Positions 14,692 to 42,620 of a stretch of 64,000 bases of DNA are shown one piece after another. The stretch comes from Balanoglossus misakiensis (taxonomy: Eukaryota > Animalia > Hemichordata). The notes under the pieces are model-generated. The model was not told the DNA's origin, did no database searches, and saw nothing but the letters and a program-made list of their open reading frames with translations. Positions within the stretch are counted from its first letter, which is position 1. Every line of letters begins with the position of its first letter. Location of the stretch: positions 9,450,088 to 9,514,087 of the forward strand of contig CM082590.2 in NCBI GenBank assembly GCA_040954595.2, in the 5' to 3' direction. Position numbers and translations under genes: made by a program.

Positions 14692-17600
14692 ATGACAGGT
14701 AAGGTACATTTCATTTCATTGAGAGAGACATGTGTACAATGCCATGTATATGATTGCCGGTTTCTCTCTCTCTTGTCTCCATGGATACGGACAGAGAGGT
14801 GTATACATACATATACCGTGACATATACCGTGAGGCAACCTGTAACGTTGGCCTTGCTAGTCAGGGATGTGTTGTCAATTGGTGGCGCGCGTTCCCGTCG
14901 CTATGGAAATCGACGCGTGAACTGCGCGTACAGCAATTAAGCTACAGTTACCATGGCAAACTGAGATCTACCCAATCACAAATTTTCAGTGGGTGGCACA
15001 AGTGAAAAAAGAGTGTCACCATGTGTTCTTTAGAACTGTCATGTACGCCATTTTTGTCTAATATTATTAATTCGAAGAGTTGAGCTACCGCAAGATCTAC
15101 CATTGTATGACGTTCTATCGTAATGTTTTTACACATTGAATGAATTCAGTGTTGCGTAGAAAGCGAATTGAATGAGCAACGGGAGACCAAAATCGTTCTA
15201 GTTTGACATTGTGGGGACCGCGGTCACCTTGACACTTACAATGACCGACATACGAGTTGAAAAAAGCAAACACGTAGAAATGGAATAAAGTGCTCTCACG
15301 CGAAAAATCGATCAATTAGTGACAGTTCGACATTTTGGTATTTGCTCTGTAAATATACTTTGACTGTTTATTTGTGTTTATAAGGCATACACAGGTCGTT
15401 GTCATGACACCCAGATGATGACAAGTGCAGAAAATACTAGTATCACGCCTTCATATTATGAATTCATCTCTTACATAACACGACATTATGGCTCTTAAGC
15501 TTATTTATATTTCATATTTGTTGCATAATTGAATCACCAATTTGCATATTTACGATTTTACGTGCTTTTAGCTGTATGAAATTACACAGATTTTCATTGG
15601 TTTAGAATAGTCACGTGCATACTTAATCACTTGCTCGTGCACGTACGTGTAAACTATCGTCGTGTGAGATGATGAAGTTTTTACTTCTCGAAATACGTTA
15701 AAAGTTGAAGCAGAAAAAACATGAAGAGGTTGATTAGGATGACTGGATCCTGGAGAATCCCTCGCGGAAATTTTGCGAAAGAAAATGTCGTTCATCGATT
15801 CTTTCCGGTTGGCCGAAGTCTGATCATGTGAGCTTCCAACATATATTTAATACTGCAGATGTGTCATGGTTTCATTGTTGATTGTAATAATATTCCCCAG
15901 AACAAGATGATCTCTTTGCATGTTCATGACGATGGATAACCATAGTGGCATGAGTGTAAAACCTATTTTGTTCTGGGGAAACTTGCAATGTATAAATTTT
16001 AGTGTAGTTAAGAGATGCGGACAGAAATGATCTTGTAGGGTCAACTTCCGGTCAACGTATTGTCTGACGTTGCTACGTTGCATACATGTTTAAAACTTTT
16101 AAGAGTGGTGCATAACATAATTGAACAATCACAAGTGCTATGGTCAGCCCAGTTCATGTGTGATCAGGGTCTAAATAATTAGACAAACAATGCTGAGCAC
16201 AGTGACCAATCACAAGTGTTGTGGTCAGCCTGTTCTATGTATGTGGCAACTAACTGACCAATCATAATGATCAGGGTCTAAATAATTGGCTAAACAATGA
16301 CCAGGGTAGTGACCAATCACAAGTGTTGTGGTCAGCCTGTTCTATGTGTGTGGCAACTAAATGACCAATCAGAATGATAAGGGTCTAAATAATTGGCTAA
16401 ACAATGACCAGGGTAGTGACCAATCACAAGTGGTGTGGTCAGCCTGTTCCCTGTGTGTGGACACTAACTGACCAATCATAATGATCAGGGTCTAAATAAA
16501 TGGCTAAACAATGACCAGGGTAGTGACCAATCACAAGTGCTGTGGTCAGCCTGTTCTATGTGTGTGGTAACTAACTGACCAATCAGAATGATAAGGGTCT
16601 AAATAATTGGCTAAACAATGACCAGGGTAGTGACCAATCACAAGTGGTGTGGTCAGCCTGTTCCCTGTGTGTGGACACTAACTGACCAATCATAATGATC
16701 AGGGTCTAAATAGTTAGACAAACAATGACCAGGGTAGTGACCAATCACAAGTGCTGTGGTCAGCCTGTTCTATGTATGTGGCAACTAACTGACCAATCAG
16801 AATGATAAGGGTCTAAATAATTAGACAAACAATGACCAGGGTAGTGACCAATCACAAGTGCTGTGGTCAGCCTGTTCTATGTGTGTGGTAACTAACTGAC
16901 CAATCGGAATGATCAGGGTCTAAATAATTGGCTAAACAATGACCAGGGTAGTGACCAATCACAAGTGCTGTGGTCAGTCTGTTCTATGTGTGTGGTAACT
17001 AACTGACCAATCATAATGATCGGGGTCTAAATAATTGGCTAAACAATGACCAGGGAAGTGACCAATCCCACGTGTTGTGGTCAGCCTGTTCTATGTGTGT
17101 GGTAACTTATTGACCAATCAGAAAGATTGAGGTCTAAAATTATTAGCTAAACAGTAACTGGCTAGTGACCAATCACAAGTGCTGTGCTTGACCTGCTTCA
17201 GATATGTGGAAAGTAATTGACTAATCAGAAAAAAGTTTAAACTTATGAAGCATTATTTTTCACACTATCCAAACAAACTTTTGAAGATCATTTTGCCACT
17301 ATTAATTTTGTTGAAATAAACCACTGACTATTTATAATTCTGAGAAAATTTCTTCCTTGTTATTAATGAGCCACATGTAATGACAGATGAATCCTAAATG
17401 TAATATATTTTGACTTTTTATAATTCTTTTGACAGATTACAAGGTCGGACAGTGCGTCGAGGTCTCTATCTCAAGGACATGGACTTTAGCCACAGTGGAA
17501 GAAGTTGGTGAATTGAAGATCCAAGGGTTTAAGGCAAGTACATTGCTTTCTGTCTTTGTGAATGATTTGAATACATACGAACTTGCCTCGCTGATGTGTA

Positions 17601-19458
17601 CTATACAGATGGAGAGATAGACAGTTAGTCAGATTGGCAGACAGACTAAGAGATGGACAGACACAGACAGACAGGCAGGCAGACAGACAGACTGACTGAC
17701 CAACTGACTGGCCACTAACTGACGGAAAGATCCTAATCTTGATTTTTTGCATCCTTTTGTAGATCCATTATGATAAATGGGATTCTGCTTATGATGAGGT
17801 CAAGCCTCTGTCTGACTGCAAATACCGTGACAACAGCGATATTACAGATCCATCAAAGGTGAGGAGAATTCCGATTTAAATTTAACGGTTACACATTAAG
17901 ATTGCTAGATATGAATATACTAAATAGGATACACAATTTCAACTCAGACGTGTGAAGAAAATAAGCATTTCTGTTGTTTTTATGTACAACTTTGAAAGAG
18001 TGAACAGAATTGTGTTGAATGGTCTGGATCTTCTTCCGGACGCAGCACAGAATAGAATTGGGTTTCTAATTTATTTTATTGCAGAAACTCTACAGCAAAC
18101 TATTTCACAGATATTTTTTAAGGAAGTGGACATTATTAATGTGCGGGGAGGGCTAGGGCATCTTCAGGGAGAGTTGCTGTTTTCTGTGCAGACATTTAAG
18201 ATGCAGGTATATAAGCTAGCCTTTCATTAAAGCTCAGTGAATGTGTCTTTTATGAACAGATCAGCCCTGGAACACAGCTTATTGTCGTTTGGCTGGGAAC
18301 GTGGTACAACTCTACCGTCCTTGAAGTCATTCAGAGTAGGGTCATCAAAGTGAGTTTGGGCGCGTCAAACGAATCTATTTGGATTGAAGAGAAAAAAGTC
18401 CGTCCAGCCAAAGGTACGTGCATGACGGTGTTGACTTCACAGTCAAACCTGTCGATAGTGGCCAGTCAAGGGACTTTCCTAAACTGGAGAAAGGTGGCCT
18501 TTATAGACAGGTCAATAAATACATAAATTGCACAGGGACTGTAACTTAGTGGTCATTATATAGAGGTGACCACTGTACAGAGGTGGCCACTAATACAGGT
18601 TTGACTGTACACATATAGGTAGTGTCGATAAGCTTAAAATTTCTTGGTGTTCTCGTGTTGTTTTGTTCAGTGTCTGTGCTGACTGTTGTATAGTGGAAGT
18701 CTGTCTTTTTCCACTTTTGTTGAAGTTTTGTGACATCCATTCTGTAATGGATCTGTGTCAATTGTGTTTTGCGTTTGTTTCTGGTGTATTTTTTGTGTGT
18801 AAGGAAAGTGCAGTAGATATATGTATACACTGACACAACAAGAATGCTAAAAAACATCATGAAAAGTTACAGCTAACTGAGCTTTAATCAGTCAATCAAT
18901 TGAATGGATAAGTGTGTGACCAACTACCTACCCAGCAATCCAATTAATTGATTGATTGGTTGTTTCCCTGATTGATTGATTAGTGATGATTGATCAATGC
19001 AAATTTGATTTACAGACGGTGCAGCTGATGGGTGTTCAGTGAACAACGGTCCTTTGGCGCCTGGTCAGAAAATCAAGACAAAACGTTATAATAAGGAACT
19101 TGATGGAGTTGTCTTGGAAAGGCGGTCTCAACTCATCTATAAGGTCAGTACAGCAGTGTATTCTTTACTATCAATCACGTGATCTGGCCATGTGGAAATT
19201 TAAGCACAGTTACCATGCAAAGTTGAGATCTAGCCAATCACACATATTTTCAGAATGTCCATGAATCACTGGCGTGGAGAAATGGAATATTAGGAGTACT
19301 TTCACAACATAATGTCTCGTCTTTTTGTTTGGAAGGTGACATATGATGGTTGGGGAAGTGTGTATGATGAGGGAATTCTTCCAGACGTGTGTAAATATCG
19401 AGACGGCAGCAAAATAGCAAATCCAGAAGATGTAAGTTTGTTTGTTTGTTTGTTTCTG

Positions 19459-19513
<55 letters not shown>

Positions 19514-20958
19514 CTGTCTGTATCATATGTACAAAATCCTAATTAATCTAAACATTCTCTGGTTGCAGGTAAAGGCAGGAAGCAAGCTGAATGTAAAATG
19601 GGCAGACGGGGGATGGTATGCAGCTACTGTACTCAGCACAGAACTAGCAATAGCTAAGGTCCACTGGTACGCATTGCCGGCGCAGCTCGATGCCTGGGTG
19701 ACGGAGGACGAGATCGTTGGAGGCTTACCTGCAGGGCCACCAAAAGCAACCAACGCTCCGAGTACCACTGCTAACCAGGGACAGAAACTCACAGCCACTG
19801 GTTCTGTGAGTGCAGATCAAGCAGAAATGCCTAAGGACGCTGGTTTTGTGGGTTATCAAGGCGAAAGACCTAAACCCTCCAAAACTGCGATTGAAACATT
19901 TGAAGAAGATGGTAAGTTGGAGATCAGGCATGTCAAAATGCCTTCTGTGTGAATTGGTGTTTATACTGATGCAAGAATTTCAGCCAAATGCTTTAATTGT
20001 AGGTAAAAGTAGCCGAAATGATAGGATTGTATCATAGCCAATATCACACCCCTCTCATTAAAGTTGATGGGCCACTTTGCATGGTACAATGTCATATTGT
20101 GCTGGTAGAAATGTAGCTCACAAAATATGCGTTTGTCACCTGAGAAAAAAAATACCCATTTTCATACCTGGCTTAGGTTCTTACCAGAAATCGAGGTTCT
20201 TACGTTTTACGGCCTACTAAGTCAAACATCTCAAGGTTCTAGCTTTAATACAGAGTCTTATTTTTAGTTGATGTGATGATAATTTCTCATTATTCATTAA
20301 CAATTATCTTGCATAATTTTCCTTCTCGTTAGACCCTGAAGACAAGTGGCAAGACATGCTGACGTCGGAGTTACTTCCACAAAGGGTTTTCTTAGATATG
20401 GAAGAGAAAGCAAAATCGATGAAAAAACCAGTGTGGTCCGGCCAGCAGCTTAAGTCCGGCGAGTATGAAGCAAGCATAGTGGCGACTAGTGACGATATGG
20501 ACTTTGCTGAGAAACTCTCCCATGTGCTGGAAAAGCGTGGATTTAAGGTGACGACAGACGTCGATAAAATCCATGACTCGAGGGTGTTTTTGCTGATCTA
20601 TAGCGAGAGTACGTCCCGAGATGAAAATGTTGTTCGTCATCTGACGAGAGCAGCAGAGAGGTTTAATATGAACGAAACGATCATCGTCCCTGTGGTGAGA
20701 CAAGGTTGTTCTGCTCGCTCTCTGGATAAGATCCCGGATAATATTGCCTATTCGCTAGCCAATACTTCTTTTATCAATTTGTCGTCGTTTGGGGATCCGT
20801 TACCGAAAGCGCTTGGTGCAGCCGTCAATGAATTAACAGGTGCGTTGGTGTTATCATGCAGTTTGTTTGTTTTCTGGATGGATGACTTGATGGATAGTGT
20901 AGCCATGATGGTGGTTGAGGGTATGATGATGATGAAGATCATCATCATCATCATCATC

Positions 20959-21016
<58 letters not shown>

Positions 21017-21174
21017 ATCATCATCTTCATCATCATCATCAATCATCATCATCATCATCATCATCAATCATCTTCATCATCATCATCATCATCAATCATC
21101 GTCTTCATCATCATCATCAATCATCATCATCATCATCATCATCATCATATATCATCATCTTCATCATCATCATC

Positions 21175-21242
<68 letters not shown>

Positions 21243-21394
21243 ATCATCTTCATCATCATCATCATCAATCATCATCTTCATCATCATCATCAATCATCAT
21301 CATCAATCATCATCTTCATCATCATCATCTTCATCATCATCAATCATCATCATCATCATCATCATCTTCATCATCATCATCATCAATCATCATC

Positions 21395-21443
<49 letters not shown>

Positions 21444-21583
21444 ATCATCATCTACATCATCAATCATCATCTTCATCATCATCATCATCAATCATCATCT
21501 TCACCATCATCATCAATCATCATCTTCATCATCATCATCATCATCAATCATCATCTTCATCATCATCATCATCAATCATCATC

Positions 21584-21630
<47 letters not shown>

Positions 21631-21746
21631 ACTATCATCATCTTCATCATCATCATCAGTCATCATCATCATCATCATCATCAATCATCTTCATCATCAT
21701 CATCATCATCATCATCAATCATCAATCATCATCATCATCAATCATC

Positions 21747-21777
<31 letters not shown>

Positions 21778-21862
21778 ATCATCATCATCATCATCATCAT
21801 CATCAATCATCATCTTCATCATCATCATCATCATCATCATCTTCATCATCATCATCATCATC

Positions 21863-21897
<35 letters not shown>

Positions 21898-22027
21898 ATC
21901 ATCATCATCATCATCATCATAAATCATCTTCATCATCATCATCATCATCATCAATCATCGTCTTCATCATCATCATCAATCATCATCATCATCATCATCA
22001 TCATATATCATCATCTTCATCATCATC

Positions 22028-22062
<35 letters not shown>

Positions 22063-22196
22063 ATCATCTTCATCATCAATCATCTTCATCAATCATCATC
22101 TTCATCATCAATCATCATCTTCATCATCTTCATCAATCATCATCATCATCATCATCATCTTCATCATCATCATCATCATCATCATCAATCATCATC

Positions 22197-22230
<34 letters not shown>

Positions 22231-22593
22231 ATCATCATCTTCATCATCATCATCATCAATCATCGTCTTCATCATCATCATCATCATCATCATCAATCAT
22301 CATCTTCATCATCATCATCAATCATCATCAATGATGATGATGATAATGATGATGAAGATGATGATTGATGAAGATGATGATGATGAAGATGATGATTGAT
22401 GATGATGATGATGATGAAGATGATGATGATGATGATGATGATGAAGATGATGATGATGATGATGGAGATGATGATGATGATGATGATGATGATGAGTATT
22501 ATTATTATTATTGATGATGATGATGATGATGGCGATGGTGATGGCGATGGCGATGATGAAGATGATGATGATGATGATGATGAAGATGATGAT

Positions 22594-22631
<38 letters not shown>

Positions 22632-22686
22632 GATGATGATGATGATGATGATGATGATGAGGATTGATGATGATGATGAAGATGAA

Positions 22687-22720
<34 letters not shown>

Positions 22721-22802
22721 ATTATTATTATTGATGATGATGATGATGATGATGATGATTATTATTATTATTTATGATGAAGATGATGATGATTATTATT
22801 AT

Positions 22803-22833
<31 letters not shown>

Positions 22834-22928
22834 GATGATGATGATGATTATTATTATTGATGATGATGATGATTATTATTATTATTTATGATGAAGATGA
22901 TGATGATGATGATGATGATGATTATTAT

Positions 22929-22960
<32 letters not shown>

Positions 22961-23026
22961 ATTATTATTATTGATGATGAAGATGATGATGATGATGATG
23001 ATGATGATTATTATTATTATTATTAT

Positions 23027-23079
<53 letters not shown>

Positions 23080-23103
23080 ATTGATGATGATGATGATGAT
23101 TAT

Positions 23104-23147
<44 letters not shown>

Positions 23148-26100
23148 GCGATGGCGATGATGATGATGATGATGATGGTGGGGGTGATGATGGTGGTGAT
23201 GATAATGATGATGATGATTATTTATGATGAAGATGATGATGATGATTATTATTATTGATGATGATGATGATGATGATTATTATTATTATTGATGATGATG
23301 ATGATGATTATTATTGATGATGATGATTATTATTGATGATGATGATGATGATGGCGATGGCGATGGCGATGGCGATGATGATGATGATGATGATGGTGGT
23401 GGTGATGATGGTGGTGATGATGATGATGATGATAGTTGTTCTAATGGCTTGATCATTACATTCAGATCTAATTCGTCGCTATGCAAGATCCGAAAAGGAC
23501 TGGTGTGTGAGTGGGACGTGGTGCTGCCAAGCCATTGTGGAGGACCAACGCTCTGGACAGAGAAAAGTGAAAGATTTCATTGTCCTGCTTCATCAAGATG
23601 GAACAAAGGTGAGCTCAAGTCTTGTACTTCTACAGTCATCATGCTTTTATTGTCTTAATTTCTAATGATGTCGTAGGACACCTCTGGGAAAAGGGAGAGG
23701 TTTCTTTAAAGGGACAAAGTCTCTCTCTCGCTGCCCTTTTCCCATTAATTATGTTTGATACAAGACACCGTTTATTTTATTCTACATGTGGATATATAGT
23801 GAATCAACAGTCGACCACACACAACTTCCATCCGACTTGTAGACACAAGAGTGAAAAACTTGCCAAAATGAATAATTGGTCTCTACCGTTTATTCACTTT
23901 GGCGAGATTTTTACTCTCATATCCTACAAACAGGAGAGAGACTTTGTCCCTTTTAATTAACGGTTGGATTTAACATCAATTGATTGACAGACTGCGGACT
24001 AATATTATGTAGTCTGTTGGGTGCTGATTGGTTGTTTTCTTTGAATATTAAATTAATGATGCCAGATTACTGGTCGATGCGCGGCTGAGTGGGAGATTAG
24101 TGGTGATGTCAGCGGCGACGTGGTGCATTTGAAGTTCAAATTCCGTGGCGAATGGTCGCAGAACGATGAAGGGAATTGGACCGAGGATGATTACATGATG
24201 GTCGGCGAGATAGCAGCGGTCATCGTCAATCAAGGGTATCGTCTCGAGGGGAACTACGCCGATCGAACAGATGCTGGGAAAAGCGCTGTGCCTGGAAGAG
24301 GTAAGACTTGTGGTCATCATGGCAGTGTGATCACAGGCAGCACACATGAAAACAGTTCTTAAAGTGTTTATGTCAATGTTTATGTCAAACTCTCAAAATA
24401 AGTCAACAGAACTTAAAGAAGGGAAAGAATCCTACAAATTTGAAGGTATATGGTCACATACTGGTATCCAAATTTAAATTTAATCAACTATGAAAAGTGG
24501 AAATCTAACCATAATCACAGATTTTCATTTTGGTGGCCATGTTTACACATATATCGTACGACAAGACAAAAATGAACAAACAATGATATTTTGGGGGAAA
24601 GTTTGGTTCAAGTGATCAGAATGCTGTCAGTAAAAGTTTAATACAACGTTCAAAGAAAAGTTTTTTTTGTTGACACATTTTTTTCCAGGTGTGCAACGCA
24701 GCAAATCTGTCGGTTTATTCAACGCGACACTGGAGAGATCTGGACTCAGCGGTGTGTATAGCGCTTCATACACAGACAGCAATCTGATTCACTACATCGG
24801 TTTGGTGCATCGAGGTGGAAACGCTGTCATCCTAGAGAACAGCTGGGCCTGTGGAGTCCGACATATGGCATTCTACGACACTGTTTCCAGATACATCAAT
24901 ATTTCCTCCAACCACCAGTTTTATTCATGGACAATCTTTGGTAAGGGTTCAAAACTTATAAGCTCATATATTACCATGTCTGGTACGTTCAACCCCTCTT
25001 GTACCCCCTGATAATTTGTCAAGGGGTGACCAGTTCCCCTTGAAACGATGTCACTCGTACGTTGCTGATGTAAAGTCCCCCTTGCCAGAGAAGAATCCCC
25101 CCCCCCCCAAATATTCTAGCAATCTCCTTGTTGATGCCATCCTGAATGGAACACAGGCTTGTAAAAATGTTGTCAACTCTTTAACTTTCACAGTTCTGTT
25201 ACAATCAATGAGTGATATGAAACAAAAAGCATGCATGTCAGTTTACAGCACAATGTGACATTAATCTTTCATGTTGTATTTCAAAGGTAAAGCATCTGAT
25301 GACAGCACCAAAGGAGTGATCATCGAAGGCTTGTTTGTATTTGTGGATACTAGTGGTGTCACCGAACAGAACATGCACATCAAAATGGAACGTGATGAGT
25401 TGCACACAGCGTACATGAACTCGACAAAGTCGTACGGTGATGAGAACGAACTGATGGCCTTGTACAACCTGAAAGCTGACCGGTAATTAAGTCGGAGCAT
25501 TATGGTTCTTGAGAATTATTGTCTGTGTTGTACCGCAATATATAGCCATCTGAAATCCATTCATTCATGTGGTAGTTTTTCATGCCAGTGGTCCAAATGT
25601 TATGCATGTTCCATTTGGTTTCAACATATTTTCATCTTGCATTCTTTGTGTGTTTGTTTGCTCTGCTCTGTTTTGCTTTACTCTGTTTTTAATTACTGAA
25701 TTAAAAATCATTTTTCTTTCTCTCAAAAGGCAAATACCCATCCCATTTAAGCCGTACATCTACAAACCACTGGCTTTGGATGAATATGCCGCTCTCATCT
25801 GCTGTACAAAACACGAGAAGTCCGTGGCGAATGGTCGCAGAACGATGAAGGGAATTGGACCGAGGATGATTACATGATGGTCGGCGAGATAGCGGCGGTC
25901 ATCGTCAATCAAGGTTACCGTCTCGAGGGGAACTACGCCGATCGAACAGATGCTGGGAAAAGCGCTGTGCCCGGAAGAGGTAAGACTTGTGGTCATCAGG
26001 GCAGTGTGATCATAGGCAGCACACATGAAAACAGTTCTTAAAGTGTTTATGTCAATGTTTATGTCAAACTCTCAAAATAACTCAACAGAACTTAAAGAAG

Positions 26101-29100
26101 GGAAAGAATCCTACAAATTTGAAGGTATATGGTCACATACTGGTATTCAAATTTAAAGTTAATCAACTATGAAAAGTGGAAATCTAACCATAATCACAGA
26201 TTTTAATTTTGGTGGCCATGTTTTCACATATATCGTACGACAAGACATAAATGAACAAACAATGATATTTTGGGGGAAAGTTTGGTTCAAGTAATCAGAA
26301 TGCTGTCAGTAAAAGTTTAATGCACCGTTCAAAGTAAATTATTTTTTGGCTGACACATTTTTTCCCAGGTGTACAACGCAGCAAATCTGTCGGTTTATTC
26401 AACGCGACACTGGAAAGATCTGGACTGAGCGGTGTGTATCGCTCTTCATACACAGACAGTGATCTGATTCATTACATCAGTTTGGTGCATCGAGGTGGAA
26501 ACGCTGTCATCCTAGAGAACAGCTGGGCCTGTGGAGTCCGACATATGGCATTCTACGACACTGTTTCCAGATACATCAATATTTCATCCAACCACCAGTT
26601 TTATTCATGGACAATCTTTGGTAAGTTATAGTCTTATATGCTCATATATGGCCAAGTCTGGTTCAACCCTTCTTGTACCCCCTGATAATTTGTCAAGGGG
26701 TGACCAGTTCCCCTTGAAACGATGTCACTCGTACGTTGCTGATGTAAAGTCCCCCTTGCCAGAGAAGAATCCCCCCCCCCCCCAAATATTCTAGCAATCT
26801 CCTTGTTGATGCCATCCTGAATGGAACACAGGCTTGTAAAAATGTTGTCAACTCTTTAACTTTCACAGTTCTGTTACAATCAATGAGTGATATGAAACAA
26901 AAAGCATGCATGTCAGTTTACAGCACAATGTGACATTAATCTTTCATGTTGTATTTCAAAGGTAAAGCATCTGATGACAGCACCAAAGGAGTGATCATCG
27001 AAGGCTTGTTTGTATTTGTGGATACTAGTGGTGTCACCGAACAGAACATGCACATCAAAATGGAACGTGATGAGTTGCACACAGCGTACATGAACTCGAC
27101 AAAGTCGTACGGTGATGAGAACGAACTGATGGCCTTGTACAACCTGAAAGCTGACCGGTAATTAAGTCGGAGCATTATGGTTCTTGAGAATTATTGTCTG
27201 TGTTGTACCGCAATATATAGCCATCTGAAATCCATTCATTCATGTGGTAGTTTTTCATGCCAGTGGTCCAAATGTTATGCATGTTCCATTTGGTTTCAAC
27301 ATATTTTCATCTTGCATTCTTTGTGTGTTTGTTTGCTCTGCTCTGTTTTGCTTTACTCTGTTTTTAATTACTGAATTAAAAATCATTTTTCTTTCTCTCA
27401 AAAGGCAAATACCCATCCCATTTAAGCCGTACATCTACAAACCACTGGCTTTGGATGAATATGCCGCTCTCATCTGCTGTACAAAACACGAGAAGTCAAA
27501 GGCGGAGAAACTGAAGACAAGCTTGCAAGATATGGCCATCATTCCGATAACACTGGATCTGTCGAAGGCAGACAAGGCACGGACCTTGGTTGTTCTTCTC
27601 TCCTCTCATACTCAGGAAAGCACAGGTAGATTGTAATATTGTTGACTGAAAATTAATCCTGTGGTAAATTTGCAGTAATTTTGCTCTTTGTATATCATCT
27701 ATAGTGTTCTGAAATTAATTGTCTAGTATATGTCCTGTATATGCACACCAACCATTTTTTGTTGTTGAAATCCATTTTAATAATAATTATGACTGTTAAA
27801 ATAAGAGTTTTCTTCGTACTAGTGTGAAAGACAGCAGTAAAAATCTACACGTAACTGTTTTAGGGATGTTGGTCAATGTATGTTATACACTAGACACTAG
27901 GATACAGCTAGTGCAGAAGACTTGATAAACATCAGCATGACCGTGCTGAAACTGTTAGCAAATGTCAGTTGTATTGCTGTTCTCATCAGTGATTTTGTGA
28001 CAGTATTATGAAAAGAAGTATATGTCAACCATGGCTACTAATAAAATAAAACCATTTTCGTGTCTACTTTTCAGAGCTTATCGAAGTCCTCAGTCGGGCC
28101 GCTGACCAAGAGAAACCCATCTTCAACATCGGTCTGGACAGCTGGTTTGCCATATTTGGAGAAAGTAGCTGGAAAGACCAGAATCTGCGCTTAAAGTTGA
28201 TGAACGCCCTCGCGAGGCTGAACCAAACACCGGAAACAACACTAGAACGTCACCATTCGAATTTCCATGGCCTGGTCAAAGGGATTCGCAAATACACAGA
28301 CCCACCAATTTATTATCTGACAGGGCTCTGGGAATTGGAGTATATCGATGTAGGCATGACCAAAAAGACGAAATTCACCGATATTTACGAGCCCCAGAGG
28401 GTAAGATTCTCTGTTTACTATAAGCTCCAACTTGTATAACTTCGCATCTTGTCTGGCAGAATTTTGTTTCCCTTGTGTGTCGATGAAGTGATCCTTTCAC
28501 TGGGACTGTCTTTGACAAATATTGTGAGTCTTTGACAAATATCATGCACACTGTCTTTTACAAATGTACGTACTTCAGTCAAGGATTTGCTAAAGTTTCT
28601 GTACAGAACATTGAATCCAAACACTAATGCACCATTTTATGAATTGTTCAGAATTTCTGATTTTAAATATTTTCCAAGATGACAATTAACCCCAAGAAGT
28701 CAGTAAACATGATAATGAATGTGTTTGTCAAAATCGACTCTCGCAAGGATCTGATAGAAAATATCCCAACTTTGTCGCTCAATATTAGGTACAAGATGAC
28801 GGTGGTGAGGAGTATGATGGATATTTCAGCGAAGGAGAAATTGAGAATGTATCTGGTCAGCCACTGAGGGTAAGTCAAGATTTTTTTTACTCAAAAACCT
28901 GCTTGAAATTTGCCTGCAGAATCTGGCAGTTATTCATGAGATTCAGAGTTTGTTTTTGACTGTTTCGCTAGAGATGTTTACTCAGTTCTTTAAGGCTCCA
29001 TTAGCTGTAACTGTTTGCTATGGGTTCAGTATTTTTCCTTTGTGTATCTACTGCAGTTTCTTATTCTAATTCCTGAATCATGATGAAATTCCCAGCATTT

Positions 29101-32100
29101 AGTTTATTAAAACAACATATGTGTATAGTCAGCATGTCCCTTTCATAATTGCGTCCACTGATCTCCATTCTATAGAAGCTTCTATTTTTTCGAATTGCTG
29201 ATTGGCTATTGAACAGGTGTCCTAAAGGAATATTATGTCCCTTTAATCTTCAGCCGGATCGACCACTCATGATCTTCATGTACTTCAACCCAGCCACCAA
29301 CGAGGTTATTCAAGCCAACGATTTCAGCAACCTCGGACTGACCGGGAAGATAGACACCGAGACGTACCAATTGAAAATGTGGAGCTCGTCTGCCAAGTAC
29401 ACTTTCCATATCAACAGTACAAATGATGCGATGTTAGGAACGTACATCAATAAAGTCACAAAAAGAAAGGTAATGGAATTTAGTTTCTGGAATTTTTTAT
29501 CTATCAAAAGTTGCCTATATGCTTGTTGACTTCTTGGAACATGCTTTTAAATACTTGGCAATTTAGAAAATGGCTGGTCACGTGGTCAAACCACCCACCT
29601 GGACTCAGCATGTGATGTCCTGGTTATCATATTTCTAAATCCCGTAGAAATGAACATATCAAAGAGTAAATTTAATTTGCTTGACTGGCTGTTATACTAT
29701 TCGTCATGCCTGCCTGAAGTGTTGCAAAACATATCTGCAGTAAAACCTGTCTAAACCGAACTCAAAAGGGACTGAAGAAATTATTTAGATTGGAGAGGTG
29801 TCCAGTTTAATTCTAGAGGTTCTTTATACATGTGGTTCTATCAATCAATCAATCAACAAAAGTTTATAAAGCGCCAAAATCCAAACAGAAATTTTGCCCA
29901 ATGACACTCATGGTTAAACCACGCTGTATGCTCTTTCGAACATATGAGTTTTCAGTTTTCTTTTGAAAGTCTGCAGGTTTGTAGATTCCCTGATGTCAAG
30001 AGGTAGTGCGTTCCATGTCAAAGGGACAGGGAAATCTTTTGGTATGGACAGGTTTCCAGGTTAGACAGGGTTTAATTTAGGTTTTACTGTACTGTATTAC
30101 ATGCATTGCAACATTTTCTGTCATAGTACAAAGTGGTGGCCACATACAGCTCTGAAGGCATCAGTGGAGTCTATCGATTTCTGGGAAGTTTGATCGGCGT
30201 CTCGCAGAGCGCTGGCGGAGTTGCGACCATCATAACGGGCTATGGCGTGTCCTCGGCTGTTGTCAGTAACGGACGACTGGTTTTCCACCCCGCAATGCCG
30301 AAAGGGAAAGAACAACTAACAACTTTCGCAGGTACGAAGTCCATACACTATTTTCATCATGCAGCCATCATGGATATGATTATAAATTCAAACCATGGCC
30401 AGGGGGAACTCCCTTGATACACCCATTGCGATCGAATCTCGCAAATGTGTCATGTTCATCGTGTACCAGAAGAACATGCAGTATTCGGAAATGATGCTTG
30501 TGAAATATGTACCTCTCTTTATGATGTTTTTGACAAGTACTTATATAAACATGGAAACTACTCTGTTTGTGATTTACAGGATACAGTACACATCGCAATT
30601 GATGTCTGGGTGGGGTGCTTTCTGTGTGTGTGTGTGTATGTGTCATTTCATACAAGTGGAATGTGGATCATTAGACCCACTAAATTTTGTTTCATCTCCA
30701 TATCTGTGTTTCTATTTTTTCCTCAATTTTTGAAGAAAAATACTCAAGATTACCTTGAGTGAAAGATGAGACAATGTTTACAACTTGATGATCAAAATTG
30801 ATTTTCGTGCATCTTTCTTCACACACGAACAGCTCGAATAAATGAATACGAAGATGGTGTCCGATTGGAAGGCTATATTTACGCTTCCACTGCTTTGATG
30901 CCGAGACAGAGGCTTGAGGCTGTGCAGTTGGCAACCAGTTTGAACCGGATTATCAAGACTGGAGACAAGGTGTTAACAGCTCCCCCTGAGGTTGTCAAAT
31001 TGGTACAGAGTTACTTTGATGTGCTGGAGAAGAAGGATTATGACCAAGTGTTGCCTCGTAAGTGGTGAAAGTTTCGTCTCTTTTGCCCGTATCTGTTCTC
31101 AGTGCCTTCGCTTGGCCAGTCTTTGGCTAATTTTGTACATAGTCTGTCTTTGACAAATAACTATGGATGGTCAAACTCACTCTGTTCTCAAAGCCATTCT
31201 CATCGCGTTAAATGTTTATTTATTTACTGAATTTTACTGTCCCTAAAATGGGAAACTCGAATTGTAACTGCACACATGAGTCATAAAAAATACACATCAT
31301 CAACAACAAAAAAGTATTAATCAAATCACAAAGTTACACCACAATGAATTCAAACAAGATTGGATCACTTTCTTAGTCTCAAATTTATGACGTTTTTAAT
31401 GTGTCATTTTGTGTATATTCTGTCACTCTAGTTCTAAGTGCCACTGCAAAACAAAATTATCCCAAAGCTGTGTTTATGAAAGAGACAGAGGATCATATGC
31501 AGAACGAAGGGAAGTTCATTCGAAACTCCGCTAAACTAGTTGGGCGGCGAGAAATGTCGACTGGCGGGCAGAAGATCGGACAGACGCGATATGAATTCGA
31601 TCTGGATTTTGAGAGGAGAAAGAAATGGAGGATGATGTTTCTGGTGGGAGACAATGATGGACTTATAGCAGGTGAAGTGGACCCCCTTTTTATACAAAGC
31701 AGTAAAAGCTCCATTAGCTGTAACTTTGCGATCTGTTTTCAGTGTTTTTGTTTTGTGTATAACTGCATGCAGTTTCTTGTTCAAATCCATGAAACATGAT
31801 GAAATGTCCAGCATTTAGTTTATCAACACAACATTTATGTTTATACTCTATTGCTGAATGCAATACAATTTATTACAATACAGTACAATTCAATACAATA
31901 TAATACAATGCAATACTCTACAATACAATACATTTACAGGTCTGGAAAGTTTGGAGGAGGAAGCCAGAAGTCAACATCTGAGCGAGTATGACGTCATGAT
32001 CAGCTATCGTAGTTGGGACGCACGATGGGTAGATCTGCTACAGCAGTATCTGGAGAAACATAACATTATTGTGTGGAGGGATCGTAGGATGGAAGTCGGT

Positions 32101-35100
32101 GTCAATTGGAGTGAAGACATCACACGGGCAGCAAGGAAGTCAGGTACACAAATATTTAGAAATTGTATGTATAATTATAATAAGGCTTTGTTGAATACTA
32201 TACACACGATGACTGACAATGAGGGCAACAGTGTATTTTGATGACCGAGGGCACTGCTAGTCGCAACTAAAACAGTCTTGTTTTCCTGAGGGCATAGCCC
32301 GAGGGAAAACAGACTGTTTTGGTGTGACTGGCAGTCCCGAGGTTATCAAAAGTACACTGTTGCCCAAATATGTCAGTCATCATGTGTTTTATAAGACACC
32401 AAACACGACACACACCACATCCAGGCAACAGTACCGGGCAGAAACCGATCGAACTGATGCCCTAGGGAACAGTTCGAAATGACTAAGGTCACGTGACGGC
32501 GTGTTGACAAATCATGATCGAGGGTTCACTGCATGGTGTGTTACAAAATGGGTTAAAACTGGAAACATTTCAGAGACAATATTTGCCATTTATCACACAG
32601 CATTAATCTTTTGAATCATTGTATGTCCTCACACACAAAGTTGAAGCAGCTTTAGTCCCATAGACTGTATGTGGATAGGTGTTAATCCTTACACTGGCTC
32701 AGGTCTGGCCAACAAAACCATCTTAAATCTGAAACATCCAGGACCACTTAAACCGTTCACACATAATAATTTACGCTAGTATTTGAGCTGAGACGTTTTA
32801 AGAAATGTTTCAAAGTATTTTTCCAATTTTTCAGTTGATTGATTTCTCAATTATCAGAACTTTATTTGTTTATATTGAAACTTGGAAGAAGTGTTTTTTG
32901 ACAACAAAAATGACACTTGGTGTATATAGTTACATACAGCAAAGATCTTCATAACACAAAATTGATTGTTCTTGTCCAGGGTGTGTTGTGTCTGCAATAT
33001 CAGAGAATTATCTAGCCTCATCTCTCTGCACAAAGGAAGTGCGAATGGCTCGAGACATCGGCCGAACGGTCATCCCTGTCATCCTGCCTGAAACACATCA
33101 GACATCTGACCCTCGCAACAAACTGGTGTCCAGCCACTACAAGGGCCAATTCCTTCCCCACACAGTGGCCAGAGAATTGTCCGCAGTCTCCTGGGTCGAT
33201 TTCCGCGACGAGTCGAATCTCAAATCGGCAGACCCCAAGGATTTGAAGAGTTTCCAGAAGAAATATCAGCACCAATTGAACACTCTGGTGGACATGATAT
33301 GCGAGATTAACGGCTATAGTCGAGTCTTCAATCTCACAGGTAGGACTTATTACTCACAGTCATAATTATATGCAAATTTAACCACTGTTACCATGGAAAA
33401 TTGATAATTTAGCAATCACAGATTTTAAGTGACCAGCAAATTTTCCGTTCGATGCATTCAAATAGTGGACTGCCTTCGCTTCCTTCCATATTTCATGCGC
33501 ACCGTATAAGTAGATTCTGGTTTTGTCCCTCCTTTTCACCCAAGCTGGTGTTCTTTCCCAATCTCCGGCAAAGATTATGGTCGCCGCCATCTTCTCTGTT
33601 GTTAGTACAGAGCACTGCCTTATGGGATTGACTGTTCACTAAACGTCTGTAACCAGCGGCTACAGCTGGAACATGCGTGTGAGACGAGCTAGGCGCTTTA
33701 ACATGTCATTTTGTACTTGTTATAGGTGAGTGGTTGCTGACTGTTGGAGATGGTGATGATATTGAAGAAGTGGCTCTCAACATCACGTCAATGGATGGCA
33801 ACAAATTGAACGGCAGTCTCATCCTGGCCAAATTCCGTGCCATAGAATTTCCTCTGGATGAATATTCCTACTTCGAAGGCTCCAACTTGCGGGTCAGTGG
33901 ATCGGTGAAGATCGGGATATTGATCCATACCTTCATCGTGTCCGCCACGCTGTCTTCAGATGGTGAAAGTCTGACTGGTAGTTATCAGATGTTGGAAAAG
34001 CCTGTGGAAGTGGGCATTGGTGAGAAGGTGGGTTAAAAATTGTACTGTTGGAGCTAGCATAGTGAAACCAGTGGCCAACTCTGTATACTGTGGCCACTTT
34101 GTTACAGTCCCTGTGCAGTTTACATGTGCAATTAATTGACCTGTCTGTAAAGGCCAGTGTAGGAAATTCCTTTGACTGCCCACTATACACAGGTTTGACA
34201 GTAGTTTGGTGTGTTTGCAACAATCCTTTATTAATCAAGATGTCCCATGATTTATCCTGTGCGAAAGAGTTTCAGACTTTGATTTTTGAGCTGCATATAA
34301 GAGGTAGAAGATGTTAGTATTCTGATGTGAGAACCATTGGTGATAGGATCGAGATATGGGTAGTTCGGTCAAGCATTTTGTTACTTTTATTTATTGTAGC
34401 TTGATCAGATGTTCCTGATCAGCCATAGACGAGTTACAAATGGCTGCTACAAACAACCTGTTAAGGGCACAAGGAAAGGTCAGGGTGCAAATCTGAAGGG
34501 GTCGTTTCAGGAGAAGCAAGTCCGATGGGCGCCGGACATGAAGAAAGCAATGCAGATTACAGGGAAGAGTTCCAGTGATGTTCAGACTTTACTGAAGGTG
34601 TGTGTGTATGTGTGTGTGTGTCGTCTGTCTGTCTGCTTGTGTGTGTGTGTGTGTGGGTGTGTGTTACATTCACACTTTCATACATCCACATACACTGTGC
34701 ACACATGCATACATACGTAGATACTGTAAAACACTTTATTTTCGCGAGTTAGAATTTTCGCGATATCGAGAGAGGCCACTGTTTCCAGAGTATTAATTTA
34801 CATTACACGTTCTCTTATTTCATTCACTGCATCGTTATCTTCAAAAAAAATTACGCGACTTTATATTTTCACGCTATTTTGGCTCTCGCGTATTTTGCGA
34901 AAATTTATTGCCCGCGAAAATGAAGTGTTTTACAGTATATCCCATCCCATCTGATCGTGAAGAGTGAAATGCTAAAAATTTCCACTGTCCTTTGGTTAGT
35001 AGTGCATCCTATGAAATTCCATTTTGCCCTGTGTGCATGGTCTGGCCACAATGAATGCTTCAGTGAGAAGACTGTATCACTCAAACAAAACAAAACACAA

Positions 35101-35561
35101 ACAAATAACATCCCTTGTGTCAACACATCTTCGTGAGATTGACAATTATACAATCACTCTGTTTCATATCAACTGGACAGATTAAAAAAATCGATGGTCT
35201 TTCTGTGCAGCTTAAACTTTTCATTGTAGTTCTCAAAAAAATGATTAAACAAATCCTGAAGCGCCCTTTTTTCCATTGACAACAAGATTTGTGTTTTCTC
35301 GTCCCACAGTCATTCAACTTGTACGACCGAGACGGCAGTGCTGAACTTGACCTCGACGAGTTGGATTTAGCCATCCGCCATTCCGGTGGCCGGGCCACCA
35401 AACAGGAACTCATGGAAATGATGCAAGAAGTGGACACGGATAATTCCGGAACTGTGGATTTCTACGAATACTTGGGCCTTTTAATGAAAGCTACTCCGAA
35501 AAGCAAGGGAGGCAGTATGTTAGCCAAGTCAGTCAAATCCAGATTTTGTACGATACAGTGA
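14692..35561 (+). CDS. Uncharacterised ~1694-aa multidomain protein: 4x Tudor/Agenet-like, 3x (TIR + beta-rich domain), DUF3887-like, EF-hand pair, C-terminal CaaX
   Basis: 24 phase-consistent exons summing to 5085 nt: 14692-14698, 17436-17533 (GC donor), 17763-17858, 18260-18413, 19016-19143, 19336-19431, 19569-19911, 20333-20839, 23466-23608, 24066-24300, 24689-24940 (or duplicate 26369-26620), 25287-25482 (or 26962-27157), 27405-27625, 28075-28400, 28789-28869, 29254-29469, 30127-30331, 30833-31057, 31432-31671, 31940-32143, 32980-33339, 33726-34027, 34400-34597, 35310-35561. Motifs: KIHYDKWDSAYDE/KVTYDGWGSVYDE (Tudor-knot-like); YDVMISYRSWD...VWRD...ISENYLASSLCTKEV...VIPVIL (TIR_2); DRDGSAELDLDE and DTDNSGTVDFYE (EF hands); ...KSVKSRFCTIQ*. 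The 7-nt first exon is the least certain. Confidence 0.85.
16123..17230 (+). repeat. 107-bp minisatellite, ~10 copies, rich in CCAAT boxes
   Basis: accaatc(a/c)ca recurs at 16205, 16312, 16419, 16526, 16633, 16740, 16847, 16954, 17061 and 17168 (107-bp period). Confidence 0.95.
18440..18607. mobile_element. Tc1/mariner-type MITE (CAGTNAAACCTG TIR, TA target); representative copy
   Basis: cagtcaaacctgt...acaggtttgactg-ta. Relatives at 1737-1878, 9900-10058, 29738-30090, 34070-34200, 36471-36621, 47390-47482, 52545-52709 and 57800-57884. Confidence 0.8.
20905..23432. repeat. Compound trinucleotide microsatellite: (ATC)n 20938-22330 followed by its reverse complement (GAT)n 22331-23432
   Basis: Directly visible; it fills almost all of intron 8 (20840-23465) of the TIR gene. 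Confidence 0.97.
23710..23951. mobile_element. TTAA MITE, AGGGACAAAGT family (internally deleted copy)
   Basis: TIR agggacaaagtctctctc / gagagagactttgtccct. Related copies at 63130-63474 and partial copies at ~54833 and ~61880-61990. Confidence 0.8.
24142..27495 (+). repeat. Intragenic tandem duplication, ~1.68 kb x2 (24142-25820 and 25821-27495)
   Basis: The sequence tccgtggcgaatggtcgcag at 24142 recurs at 25821, and exons 11-12 are duplicated. The junction fuses the 5' part of exon 13 to the 3' part of exon 10 across a TC microhomology. Confidence 0.95.
29840..30016 (-). mobile_element. Short 3' end of an L2-like LINE nested in a Tc1/mariner-type MITE
   Basis: The minus strand reads WNALPLDIRESTNLQTFKRKLKTHMFERAYSVV*, with a (TTGA)n tail. 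It interrupts the MITE motif acatgtggttctatgtcaaaggg that is intact at ~47392. Confidence 0.8.
32202..32388. repeat. Long imperfect hairpin (fold-back non-autonomous DNA element) in intron 20 of the TIR gene
   Basis: acacgatgactgaca...ggcaacagtgta...aaaacagtct pairs with agactgtttt...tacactgttgcc...tgtcagtcatcatgtgt. Confidence 0.7.
34724..34935. mobile_element. TA-flanked MITE with CTGTAAAA TIR
   Basis: ta-ctgtaaaacact...agtgttttacag-ta. Relatives at 4824-4991, ~55308-55503 and ~62250-62530. Confidence 0.75.
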
Positions 35562-35714
35562 GTTGATAAGTTTCACAGTCAGTAAAACAATTGTCTAGTA
35601 TCTAGACCTGTTCTCTGTCTGCTTTGCCTTAAAACTAACGTTTACGTGATTCACTTCCAGGAAAGTGATTAAACTCAGTAATACACTCAAGAATGCAACT
35701 GCATAAATATTTAC

Positions 35715-36079
35715 CTCATAGACCCCTTGATTATCTATATCTTCAAAGTTCTTCCAAGTGACGCATATGTGATGCCATTCTCCATAGTTTGCTTCCAGAC
35801 CCGAGTCTTCTCCGTTGACGTTGTTCACGGAAAGTTTCAAATTCGAGGGGTTCTCAAACTGGAAGCTGGAGTCTGGTCCCGCGTAATAACTGACCATTGT
35901 ACCGGTGTTGTCTCCTGCATCTGATCTCATCCACCAACAGAGGGTGAACTCAGTCAGGTCTGGGATTGGTTCGTCAATAGTCACCTGACTTGACTGTCTG
36001 TCGAAGACAAGCGTCTTCTGCTCCAGATCGCCACCCATGCAGTTTTCATCGTAAAGTGGGAAATCATTGTAGTGACCCT
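35715..36079 (-). CDS. Isolated pentraxin (PTX/LamG-like) domain exon; may be a pseudogene remnant
   Basis: Open 365-nt exon with acceptor (attattctcag) and donor (GAG|gtaaat). It encodes ...LTEFTLCWWMRS...GTMVSY...GEWHHICVTW, which includes the pentraxin HxCxTW signature. I found no partner exons in the window. Confidence 0.7.
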
Positions 36080-36440
36080 CTGAGAATAATCAATATGCCC
36101 ATTCTGTTCTGTTCCTTTGGAGGTGTGAAATGATGTGTGTCTAAGATTGTACTCTTAGCTTCATTGCAAATATTGCTGGCAAATTTGTTTAAAGTGAAAC
36201 TGGTTTTGTACGGGAATGAGGGAACATCGTCTACATCGATGGAAAGAGTGTTCCCACGACTGAATGAAAACAATGTCCATGTGAAAAACCTGATGCTGTA
36301 TTTTGATTTTCCCCAATTTGGCAGGAACCTGAGTGAAATGACCGATGATTTTGTTTGTGAAACCATCCTTGCCATTTACCATTACTCAGAAATGATTTAT
36401 TTGCAATAGTGGAAGTGTATCAGAGTTCATGCAGAGTTTC

Positions 36441-41690: not shown

Positions 41691-42620
41691 TTTCATCAGT
41701 AGGCCGATGATAACCAGCTATACCTCGCCTTTTCCCGTCAAGATTCAACCTCTGCCGTTCAAGCTCTGGAGATCTGTATCCGTGACATAAAGGAATGGAT
41801 GACGCTGAAGGTACAACTAAATGACAACAAAACCGAAGTCCTTGTTCTTCGCTCAAAATTTAGTCGTCTTCCTGATCCTATTCCATCCATCAATATCAGC
41901 TCTACATCTATCACTCCAGTAACAACAGCACGTAATCTGGGAGTTGTCTTCGATAGTATCCATATGTATAACCAGCACATCAAGAATACCTGCAAGTCCA
42001 TCTATTTTCATCTTCGACGCATCGGATCAATACGTCAGTACCTGTCTTCCAAGGATTGTTGTACTTTAATTCATGCAGTTCTTTCAACCAAACTTGATTA
42101 CTGCAATTCGTTACTGTTTGGTCTTCCTCAATCTGCAATTAATCTACTTCAGCGCTCGCAAAATACAGCAGCAAGAATCATCACCCGGTCGAAGAAGTTT
42201 GAACATGTCACTCCCGCTCTCATCTCTCTGCATTGGCTACCAGTTTGTGCCAGGATTGATTACAAGATATTGCTTCTTACATGTAAGGCCATTCATGGCC
42301 TTACCCCGGAGTACATTTCTGACATGGTTAATCGATATACCCCTTCACGCAGCTTAAGGACTCGGGAAAAGAACCTTCGGACAATAACACACTACAAACA
42401 AGTCAACTATGGAGGACGTGCATTTTCCTATGCTGCTCCAAAGCTCTGGAACTCACTACCTGATGACATTCGTCTAGCTACCAGTCTATACTCTTTTAAG
42501 GGGAAACTGAAGACTGACTTGTTTAAAACAGCCTACAGTGTGTGAACAACCATCGGGCGCCACTGAACAGTTCTCTGGATATTGGCGCCATAGAAATGTT
42601 TTTGATTGATTGATTGATTG
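41691..42620 (+). mobile_element. 5'-truncated L2/CR1-group LINE (RT C-terminus), inactive
   Basis: FHQ*ADDNQLY (YADD with Tyr changed to TAG), LNDNKTEVL, ARNLGVVFD, KLDYCNSLL, LHWLP, GRAFSYAAPKLWNSLP, then a (GATT)n tail at ~42603-42620. Confidence 0.92.

Follow-up and report, generated by a model that had tools for sequence, protein, structure and literature searches.

Does a single gene of the acorn worm Balanoglossus misakiensis encode a TIR enzyme together with its own switch? The question is raised by positions 14692 to 35561, forward strand, of a 64,000-nucleotide stretch of contig CM082590.2 (assembly GCA_040954595.2, positions 9,450,088 to 9,514,087), which we call the window. A sequence-only reading had joined 24 exons here into a protein with Tudor-like repeats, three TIR-like domains each followed by beta domains, a pair of EF-hands and a CaaX tail, and had suggested that this protein couples ligand and Ca2+ sensing to NAD+ cleavage. 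We find the observation partly confirmed and the interpretation partly supported. As judged from sequence, the gene is real and conserved and its protein uncharacterised. With a probability of about 0.5, the product is a gated TIR enzyme that processes NAD+, in which a catalytic-type TIR domain is joined to two modules of pseudo-TIR and beta-barrels.

Between 14692 and 35561 we located 27 exon-like pieces. Joined together, all 27 run into a stop at residue 801; when a unit of three pieces that occurs twice is counted once, they give a 24-exon model of 5085 nt, encoding 1694 residues with zero internal stops, as had been proposed. The introns are GT-AG in 22 of 23 cases and GC-AG in one (at 17533, the donor of exon 2), which is backed by the fact that exons 2-4 mirror exons 5-7 in length and phase. 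The 7-nt exon 1 (14692-14698, Met-Thr), one of five candidate first micro-exons, is the least secure; its phase fits exon 2, and the relatives P0004, P0016 and P0017 have a similar start point. The protein of the jellyfish Sanderia (P0001, 1630 residues) is collinear with the model, aligning to residues 66-1694 as a single high-scoring segment pair with 36% identity over 1684 columns and a CaaX at the end of both. Ptychodera flava P0009 (XP_070547203), the nearest named relative, aligns to residues 308-1344 at 77%. Since both proteins align along the model, it is not a product of chance. No transmembrane segment was seen in the model, in which the highest 19-residue hydropathy is 1.46.

The repeated unit belongs to a 1.68-kb tandem duplication (24142-27497), absent from the sequence-only reading, that interrupts the assembled allele. 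The segment 24142-25822 recurs at 25821-27497, with a 2-base overlap at the junction, and brings second copies of exon 11 (26369-26620) and exon 12 (26962-27157). Because the duplication starts within exon 10 and stops within exon 13, it also creates a hybrid exon (25730-25979, 250 nt), the start of exon 13 fused to the end of exon 10, which has good splice sites, is out of frame and contains a stop. Across the repeated part 6 of 32 exon subsets are open, and all six omit the hybrid exon and at least one more. The 24-exon model requires three exons to be skipped, and the assembled allele is therefore damaged or mis-assembled; from its predicted exons, it can yield the full protein only if one copy of the duplicated unit is skipped. 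Orthologues carry a single copy of this region.

Whether the duplication is a real mutation, leaving a null allele that stops at residue 801, or an assembly join of two alleles is a question separate from family function, and the odds are about even. The junction is seamless in a window without N, and the copies are identical over their last 720 columns, as expected of a young duplication. Against this, the first 960 columns hold 47 differences, mostly silent in exons (10 synonymous and 4 non-synonymous), as between two working alleles; the frame and all remaining junctions are intact; and false exon duplications are described as common among assembly errors (PMC8081667). The pattern looks like two apparently working alleles side by side, through mis-assembly or through recombination after a real duplication. 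Intron 8 (20938-23433) holds about 451 ATC copies followed directly by about 361 ATG copies, a 2.5-kb head-to-head microsatellite with differently interrupted arms; either this palindrome is genuine or the assembly was joined a second time close to the duplication. In the jellyfish Rhopilema (P0005, P0004, P0003) part of the TIR1 region is separately duplicated, and the copies are fused by one annotation and split by another.

Structures were predicted for two relatives rather than for the window protein: the P0009 model (predicted local distance difference test, pLDDT, 66; predicted template modelling score 0.60; alignment of 12 rows) and the P0002 model of the third TIR domain and the last barrel, b5 (pLDDT 62; 6 rows). 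All three TIR domains are predicted to adopt the TIR fold, with Z of 12-14, which upholds the three TIR-like domains read from the sequence. TIR1, on exon 8 (20333-20839), matches the MyD88 TIR (Z 13.6, root-mean-square deviation (rmsd) 2.6, 120 residues aligned, P0009 model). TIR2, on exons 13 and 14 (27405-28400) with the start of the beta domain b3, matches the SARM1 TIR (Z 13.1, rmsd 2.4, 116 aligned, P0009 model), and TIR3, on exons 20 and 21 (31940-33339), matches the RPS4/RRS1 entry (Z 12.2), Hydra TRR-2 (12.0) and SARM1 (11.0) in the P0002 model. The TIR_2 profile scored 29.3 bits on exon 8 (cut-off 28), 35.4 on exon 20 and 23.8, below the cut-off, on exon 21; the TIR profile is thus above cut-off for TIR1 and TIR3, and TIR2 is missed by Pfam but is a TIR by predicted fold. 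In HHalign comparisons of the internal repeats, made on shallow alignments of 9 rows, TIR1 and TIR2 align with a probability of 96.7.

Only TIR3 is of the predicted catalytic type; TIR1 and TIR2 are of the putative pseudo-enzyme type. The glutamate at the catalytic position is kept in 11 of the 12 TIR3 rows, the sole exception leaving the frame at that codon, and is found in 0 of 17 TIR1 rows and 0 of 12 TIR2 rows. In the window protein it is E1344, encoded by GAA at 33036-33038, the codon named by the sequence-only reading. In the P0002 model this residue lies 13 beyond strand C, in sixth place on helix C, and in the P0009 model the same place is taken by a histidine in TIR1 and a valine in TIR2, corresponding to His410 and Val830 of the window protein. 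The BB loop is shortened in both, and in the two models helix A is separated from strand C by 14-15 residues in TIR1 and TIR2 versus 30 in TIR3. TIR3 is also the most conserved domain, with a mean identity of 0.50 across six distant members versus 0.21-0.41 elsewhere and 42 invariant residues; it keeps Y1279-R1280-S1281, W1302-R1303-D1304, W1313, C1341 and E1344. TIR1 and TIR2 hold 17 and 21 invariant residues, and so appear to be under constraint. The best PDB sequence matches of the TIR3 profile are the TIRs of the plant NLRs (nucleotide-binding receptors with leucine-rich repeats) RPV1 (E 9.6e-9), RUN1 and Roq1, with the glutamate aligned to their WCLDE motif; the AA-loop F-R-G motif of such TIRs lines the RUN1 ligand pocket (PMC7075850). 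We consider it probable that TIR3 is an enzyme of some kind. The putative mark of NAD+ cleavage, the glutamate, is present in TIR3 and does not extend to TIR1 and TIR2.

The TIR domains are followed by five small beta domains, b1-b5, three of which (b1, b2 and b5) have fold matches and are predicted to form eight-stranded barrels of the avidin type, at Z 10-11. In the P0009 model b1 matches a designed 8-stranded barrel (Z 10.1) and b2 matches zebavidin/streptavidin (Z 11.2); both are encoded by exons 9-12 (23466-25482, residues 488-722). In the P0002 model b5 (exon 22, 33726-34027) matches agroavidin (Z 11.3), shwanavidin (11.0) and Cap15 (7n34; Z 10.1, rmsd 2.9, 102 aligned), values at which the types are not separable. 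The Pfam family Avidin (PF01382) gave zero matches at E<=1 despite these folds. Within b1, G552, Q556, E559 and W562 are invariant among 6 distant members. The domains b3 and b4, on exons 15-18 (28789-31057, residues 903-1132), are all-strand in the P0009 model and repeat b1 and b2, with HHalign probabilities of 92 for b2/b4 and 54 for b1/b3. These alignments show TIR1-b1-b2 and TIR2-b3-b4 to be an internal duplication.

Between b4 and TIR3 lies an alpha+beta insert domain (exon 19, 31432-31671, with the end of exon 18; residues ~1150-1262), modelled in P0009 as three to four helices followed by three strands. It had been called DUF3887-like, which was not confirmed: DUF3887 (PF13026) had no match in any Pfam scan of the window or the relatives, nor had any other Pfam family on this domain, and its order of helices then three strands is compatible with DUF3887. 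Its own profile finds the domain in 7 relatives, and it is absent in Physarum; in Rhodelphis P0012 a second, C-terminal copy was judged by eye at residues ~1930-2010. For b3, b4 and the insert zero fold matches were listed, all three having been searched only as parts of the larger model and not folded alone. Foldseek with a 1115-residue model gave noise only, and the ESM Atlas gave leads only, at <=0.85 (OAA lectin, avidin and unnamed bacterial barrels).

The two ends of the protein are more variable. Exons 2-4 (17436-18413, residues 3-118) and exons 5-7 (19016-19911, residues 119-307, with a linker) each encode a pair of Tudor/chromo-like repeats, and the first pair aligns to the second with HHalign probabilities of 88 and 53. 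The four Tudor/Agenet-like barrels first proposed are a weaker call than had been stated, and the Pfam scores are sub-threshold throughout: Tudor_4 on exons 2-4 at E 0.05 only, Tudor-knot on exons 5-7 at 20.5 bits versus a cut-off of 20.8, and MSL3_chromo-like and Tudor_2 below cut-off in the jellyfish orthologues. The repeats had zero PDB sequence matches, and their tentative assignment to the Royal family comes from three related profiles, all below threshold. At the other end, exons 23 and 24 (34400-35561) encode a linker, an EF-hand pair, a basic tail and CTIQ, much as had been read. EF-hand_7 scores 45.1 bits on exon 24, and the two calmodulin-like loops of 12 residues (at residues 1617 and 1653) carry the canonical residues, Asp at positions 1 and 3 and Glu at position 12. 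The last 20 residues contain 5 basic and 0 acidic side chains, and the CaaX is conserved as CTIQ in the window protein, CSIQ in Sanderia and CVIQ in Rhopilema. This CaaX is a predicted prenyl anchor, and a glutamine at the X position favours farnesyl.

The Tudor-like repeats are found in the animals and in P0016 and P0017, and the EF pair with CaaX in three animals, the window species and both jellyfish. Other members have other ends: Rhodelphis has a PH domain, the fragment P0014 an EF pair at its N-terminus and P0019 an MGCxxS start, and membrane and Ca2+ modules recur at different ends of family members. Tudor and EF matches of our own profiles on Rhodelphis and Thecamonas were rejected as artefacts, those rows being in the training alignment. 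The Tudor-like repeats, EF-hands and CaaX are, on this distribution, putative lineage add-ons. Near-complete members share the core order TIR1-b1-b2-TIR2-b3-b4-(insert)-TIR3-(b5), which besides animals is carried by Physarum, Thecamonas and Rhodelphis. Because the core occurs there without the Tudor, EF and CaaX elements, these elements are not central to the system. The core probably predates animals, its order being the same in animals, Amoebozoa, Apusozoa and Rhodelphis, and the family has a greater age and spread than the sequence-only reading supposed.

An exon 8 query against 1.84 billion representatives gave 14 matches at E<=0.001, and the ten traced to a source come from P. flava, Physarum, Rhodelphis, Thecamonas (2), ENA (3) and Logan (2). 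Fourteen is few for so large a library, and the family is therefore patchy or poorly predicted. An exon 21 query led to Sanderia P0001 and Rhopilema, and a Physarum protein gave 7 matches, 3 of them new. A search for the same architecture elsewhere, which the sequence-only reading had called for, thus finds the core in animals and protists; pattern scans that demand exact short motifs, and so miss spliced or distant genes, confirmed no relatives in metagenome contigs (0/51 and 0/100 stretches), GTDB genomes (0/66) or viral contigs (0/73). Motif counts from the TIR-atlas table cover no more than the opening part of every sequence cell and are not a census. In a tree of 13 rows, with six short fragments left out, the four named animal rows lie on one side of a branch with support 100/99. 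This tree is unrooted, without an outgroup, and for that reason it does not separate vertical descent accompanied by losses from transfer between eukaryotes.

How might such a protein work? We propose four steps, given in order of falling confidence. TIR3 would cleave NAD+, releasing nicotinamide and either ADP-ribose (ADPR) or a cyclic isomer of it. As in other TIR enzymes, cleavage would depend on TIR-TIR assembly, which the Glu-less TIRs may block or seed in cis; oligomerisation-gated TIR NAD+ hydrolases (NADases) fused to sensor domains are established in TIR-SAVED and TIR-STING (PMC10419184). A farnesylated CaaX would then concentrate the protein on a membrane, and the gate might be flipped by Ca2+ on the EF-hands or by a small ligand in the barrels. 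Lineage-specific anchors and EF-hands would set where and when TIR3 acts, through a prenyl anchor and an EF pair in the animal branch, for which feedback between Ca2+ and cyclic ADPR (cADPR) is possible as a special case. By analogy, an immune role is plausible. What switches eukaryotic TIRs on is an open question in the field; according to recent surveys, many of them have yet to be characterised and some proportion have enzymatic activity (PMC13142454; bioRxiv 10.64898/2026.04.20.719644). The family is a candidate for a one-chain regulatory design, with one catalytic-type TIR, two conserved pseudo-TIRs, repeated barrels of a small-ligand type and separately gained Ca2+ and membrane modules, and its Physarum members, compact and transcript-derived, are open to direct assay.

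Several observations weigh against a gated NAD+-processing enzyme. Conservation is lowest in the barrels (0.21-0.32), as would suit spacers no less than pockets. In TIR1 an almost invariant glutamate lies six residues past the catalytic position, so that this domain is not proven to be a dead enzyme, and 5 of 12 TIR2 rows have a glutamate one residue before that position. Thecamonas, Physarum P0024 and P0017 have no EF-hand, CaaX or PH, so the core can do without Ca2+ and without an anchor. In both hemichordate-type copies the assembled frame is broken, by the duplication here and, in the RefSeq model P0009, by a change of frame at the TIR3 Glu codon (matching window 33034-33038), which is either an error or a null allele; that model also lacks b5, EF-hands and CaaX. 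Lastly, the catalytic glutamate is reported in >70% of all TIRs, including TLR1/2/6/10 (PMC7075850), and among the Glu-bearing TIRs in one screen of isolated domains, activity was seen in 12 of 61 from animals and 4 of 29 from protists (bioRxiv 10.64898/2026.04.20.719644); with so few of the animal domains active, the glutamate alone is weak evidence of activity.

These figures lend themselves to an unlikely but credible alternative, a non-enzymatic scaffold whose three TIRs would seed the assembly of proteins at a membrane, E1344 having a structural role. The glutamate is common in non-catalytic TIRs (PMC7075850), most Glu-bearing TIRs were silent in that screen, two of the three TIRs here lack it, and the adaptors MyD88 and MAL are among the best fold matches of TIR1. 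However, the invariant residues of TIR3 cluster in the pocket-forming strand A, AA and BB loops and helix C, and the protein has no death, SAM or receptor partner domain.

A second-messenger receptor and effector in one chain is quite unlikely. Here at least one barrel would be a nucleotide pocket of the Cap15/S-2TMbeta type, whose ligand assembles TIR3 as in TIR-STING or TIR-SAVED. Besides the fold match of b5 to Cap15, the Sanderia b3 matches Cap15_CD_rec (E 3e-4) and the PADLOC profile for the two-transmembrane (2TM) effector (E 5.5e-3), and the Sanderia orthologue is the only row of PMC13142454 supplement 1 to bear the label S_2TMBeta. The Cap15_CD_rec score, however, is 21.4 bits against a cut-off of 31.2 and occurs in 1 of 9 near-complete relatives scanned, avidins score as high as Cap15 or higher, and by hydropathy the two N-terminal transmembrane helices of Cap15 and S-2TMbeta proteins are absent. 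Very doubtful, too, is a bolder version, a pre-animal eukaryotic receptor-enzyme in which a messenger, a cyclic nucleotide or one of ADPR type, is bound by Cap15-related barrels, the change is relayed by the two pseudo-TIRs and TIR3 makes cADPR; in jellyfish and acorn worms the EF-hands and prenyl anchor would close a loop of Ca2+ feedback at the membrane. If true, eukaryotes would possess their own equivalent of bacterial TIR-STING and TIR-SAVED, built on another sensor fold, and a source of cADPR that is regulated by Ca2+ and does not depend on CD38.

That TIR3 instead removes or converts a messenger, as a cADPR hydrolase or in another N-glycosidase reaction, so that the protein ends a Ca2+ signal, is a long shot. 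A cADPR hydrolase of TIR fold, Raw, is reported (PMC13455253), and nucleoside deoxyribosyltransferases and MilB match at Z ~10, but the sequence neighbours of TIR3 are NAD+-cleaving plant TIRs and the TIR-SAVED/ThsB profiles. Finally, it is highly improbable that the exons are split between two or more genes, as the RefSeq division of Rhopilema into 529- and 1423-residue models and the P. flava model without both ends might suggest, since Sanderia P0001 is collinear from end to end, Rhopilema P0005 likewise spans Tudor-like repeats to CaaX, the Physarum members are transcript open reading frames covering TIR1 to b5 and P0017 has Tudor-like repeats and TIR3 in one chain; the single polypeptide first proposed is retained.

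The surroundings of the gene are ordinary. Its neighbours are common animal genes: a MATH-BTB gene upstream, then one that is pentraxin-like, LEO1 and an adhesion-type G-protein-coupled receptor (7tm_2), and the flanking genes in the window show no sign of an immune gene cluster. A 164-codon pentraxin/LamG-like frame on the minus strand (35595-36089) lies tail to tail with the TIR gene and ends 34 bases past its stop, so the 3' ends of the two probably overlap. Intron 1 contains a 107-bp minisatellite (16161-17186; 9.6 copies, 90% matches), two other introns share a short dispersed repeat (28992-29127 and 31705-31843; 80-84%), and intron 20 contains a 49-nt inverted repeat (32223-32365); the latter two are possibly small mobile elements. 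Further on, a LEO1-like gene (49928-51067) has a long exon of acidic 7-residue repeats, and a receptor with somatomedin-B and 7tm_2 (57177-59924) has a 621-codon exon and, downstream, a second somatomedin-B exon (62303-63094), perhaps of a tandem paralogue. Two frames without a Pfam match at E<=0.001 resemble the end of a reverse transcriptase of a long interspersed nuclear element (41703-42545) and, on the minus strand, a signal peptidase SEC11 (47072-47401).

Is the architecture new? The sequence-only reading did not recognise it, and our literature search, over titles and abstract openings, found no account of it, while supplementary tables of bioRxiv 10.64898/2026.04.20.719644 may include a member or a test of one. 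Orthologues are nevertheless already in an automatic catalogue: 4 of 5 EukProt orthologues queried are in PMC13142454 supplement 1, all as 'Not in supported Clade', and the Sanderia row lists Tudor_2, three TIRs, S_2TMBeta and EF-hand_7. In the main text of that paper Physarum, Thecamonas and EF-hand do not occur; the sequences are table rows, and the family is therefore catalogued yet apparently undescribed. The ecTIR-DC families 3, 5, 8, 11, 14 II and 15, compared by description only through the domain labels in PMC6321704 supplement 1, include none drawn with this domain order. Close in composition is ecTIR-DC 14, the invertebrate LRR-Roc-COR-TIR proteins with MBT/chromo and EF-hand, which likewise unite a TIR, barrels of the Royal family (putative here) and an EF-hand within a single protein (PMC6321704, PMC9334734); those are Roco proteins of ~3000 residues, whereas there is no LRR, Roc or COR here.

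SARM1/TIR-1 is, like the protein here, a cytosolic, receptor-independent animal TIR with the catalytic glutamate, and its TIR fold matches at Z 11-13. The ARM and tandem SAM domains that precede its TIR had no Pfam match here and no room, Tudor-like repeats and beta domains standing in their place, and two Glu-less TIRs and five beta domains are added; SARM1 is clade 8 in the PMC13142454 tree, whereas the orthologues here fall in no supported clade. Nor was there a Pfam match to the features of TLR, IL-1R or MyD88 (a transmembrane helix with an ectodomain of LRR or Ig type, or a death domain), as the sequence-only reading had noted. The TIRs of the plant NLRs RPV1, RUN1 and Roq1 come nearest to TIR3 among solved sequences, and their pocket motifs align with it, but NB-ARC and LRR are missing here and the TIR partners would lie within one chain. 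RPS4/RRS1, a pair of a catalytic and a non-catalytic TIR, may be likened to this pairing. Bacterial and oyster TIR-STING, TIR-SAVED and Cat1 also fuse a TIR to a possible small-molecule sensor (PMC10419184), which here would be an eight-stranded avidin-type barrel rather than STING, SAVED or CARF. Cap15/OptE (S-2TMbeta) resembles the barrels here in predicted fold, and its profile matches one barrel weakly; its two transmembrane helices are obligate (PMC12657218), whereas here there are none, and five copies of the beta domain stand beside TIRs. The prenylated calmodulins CaM53 and OsCML1-3 end as this protein does, in EF-hands, a basic tail and CaaX (PMC1797041), but they are stand-alone plant sensors, and here the module ends a protein of ~1700 residues. 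Placed among these systems, the protein belongs to none of SARM1, TLR/IL-1R/MyD88 and Cap15, and most likely works like a sensor-gated TIR NADase.

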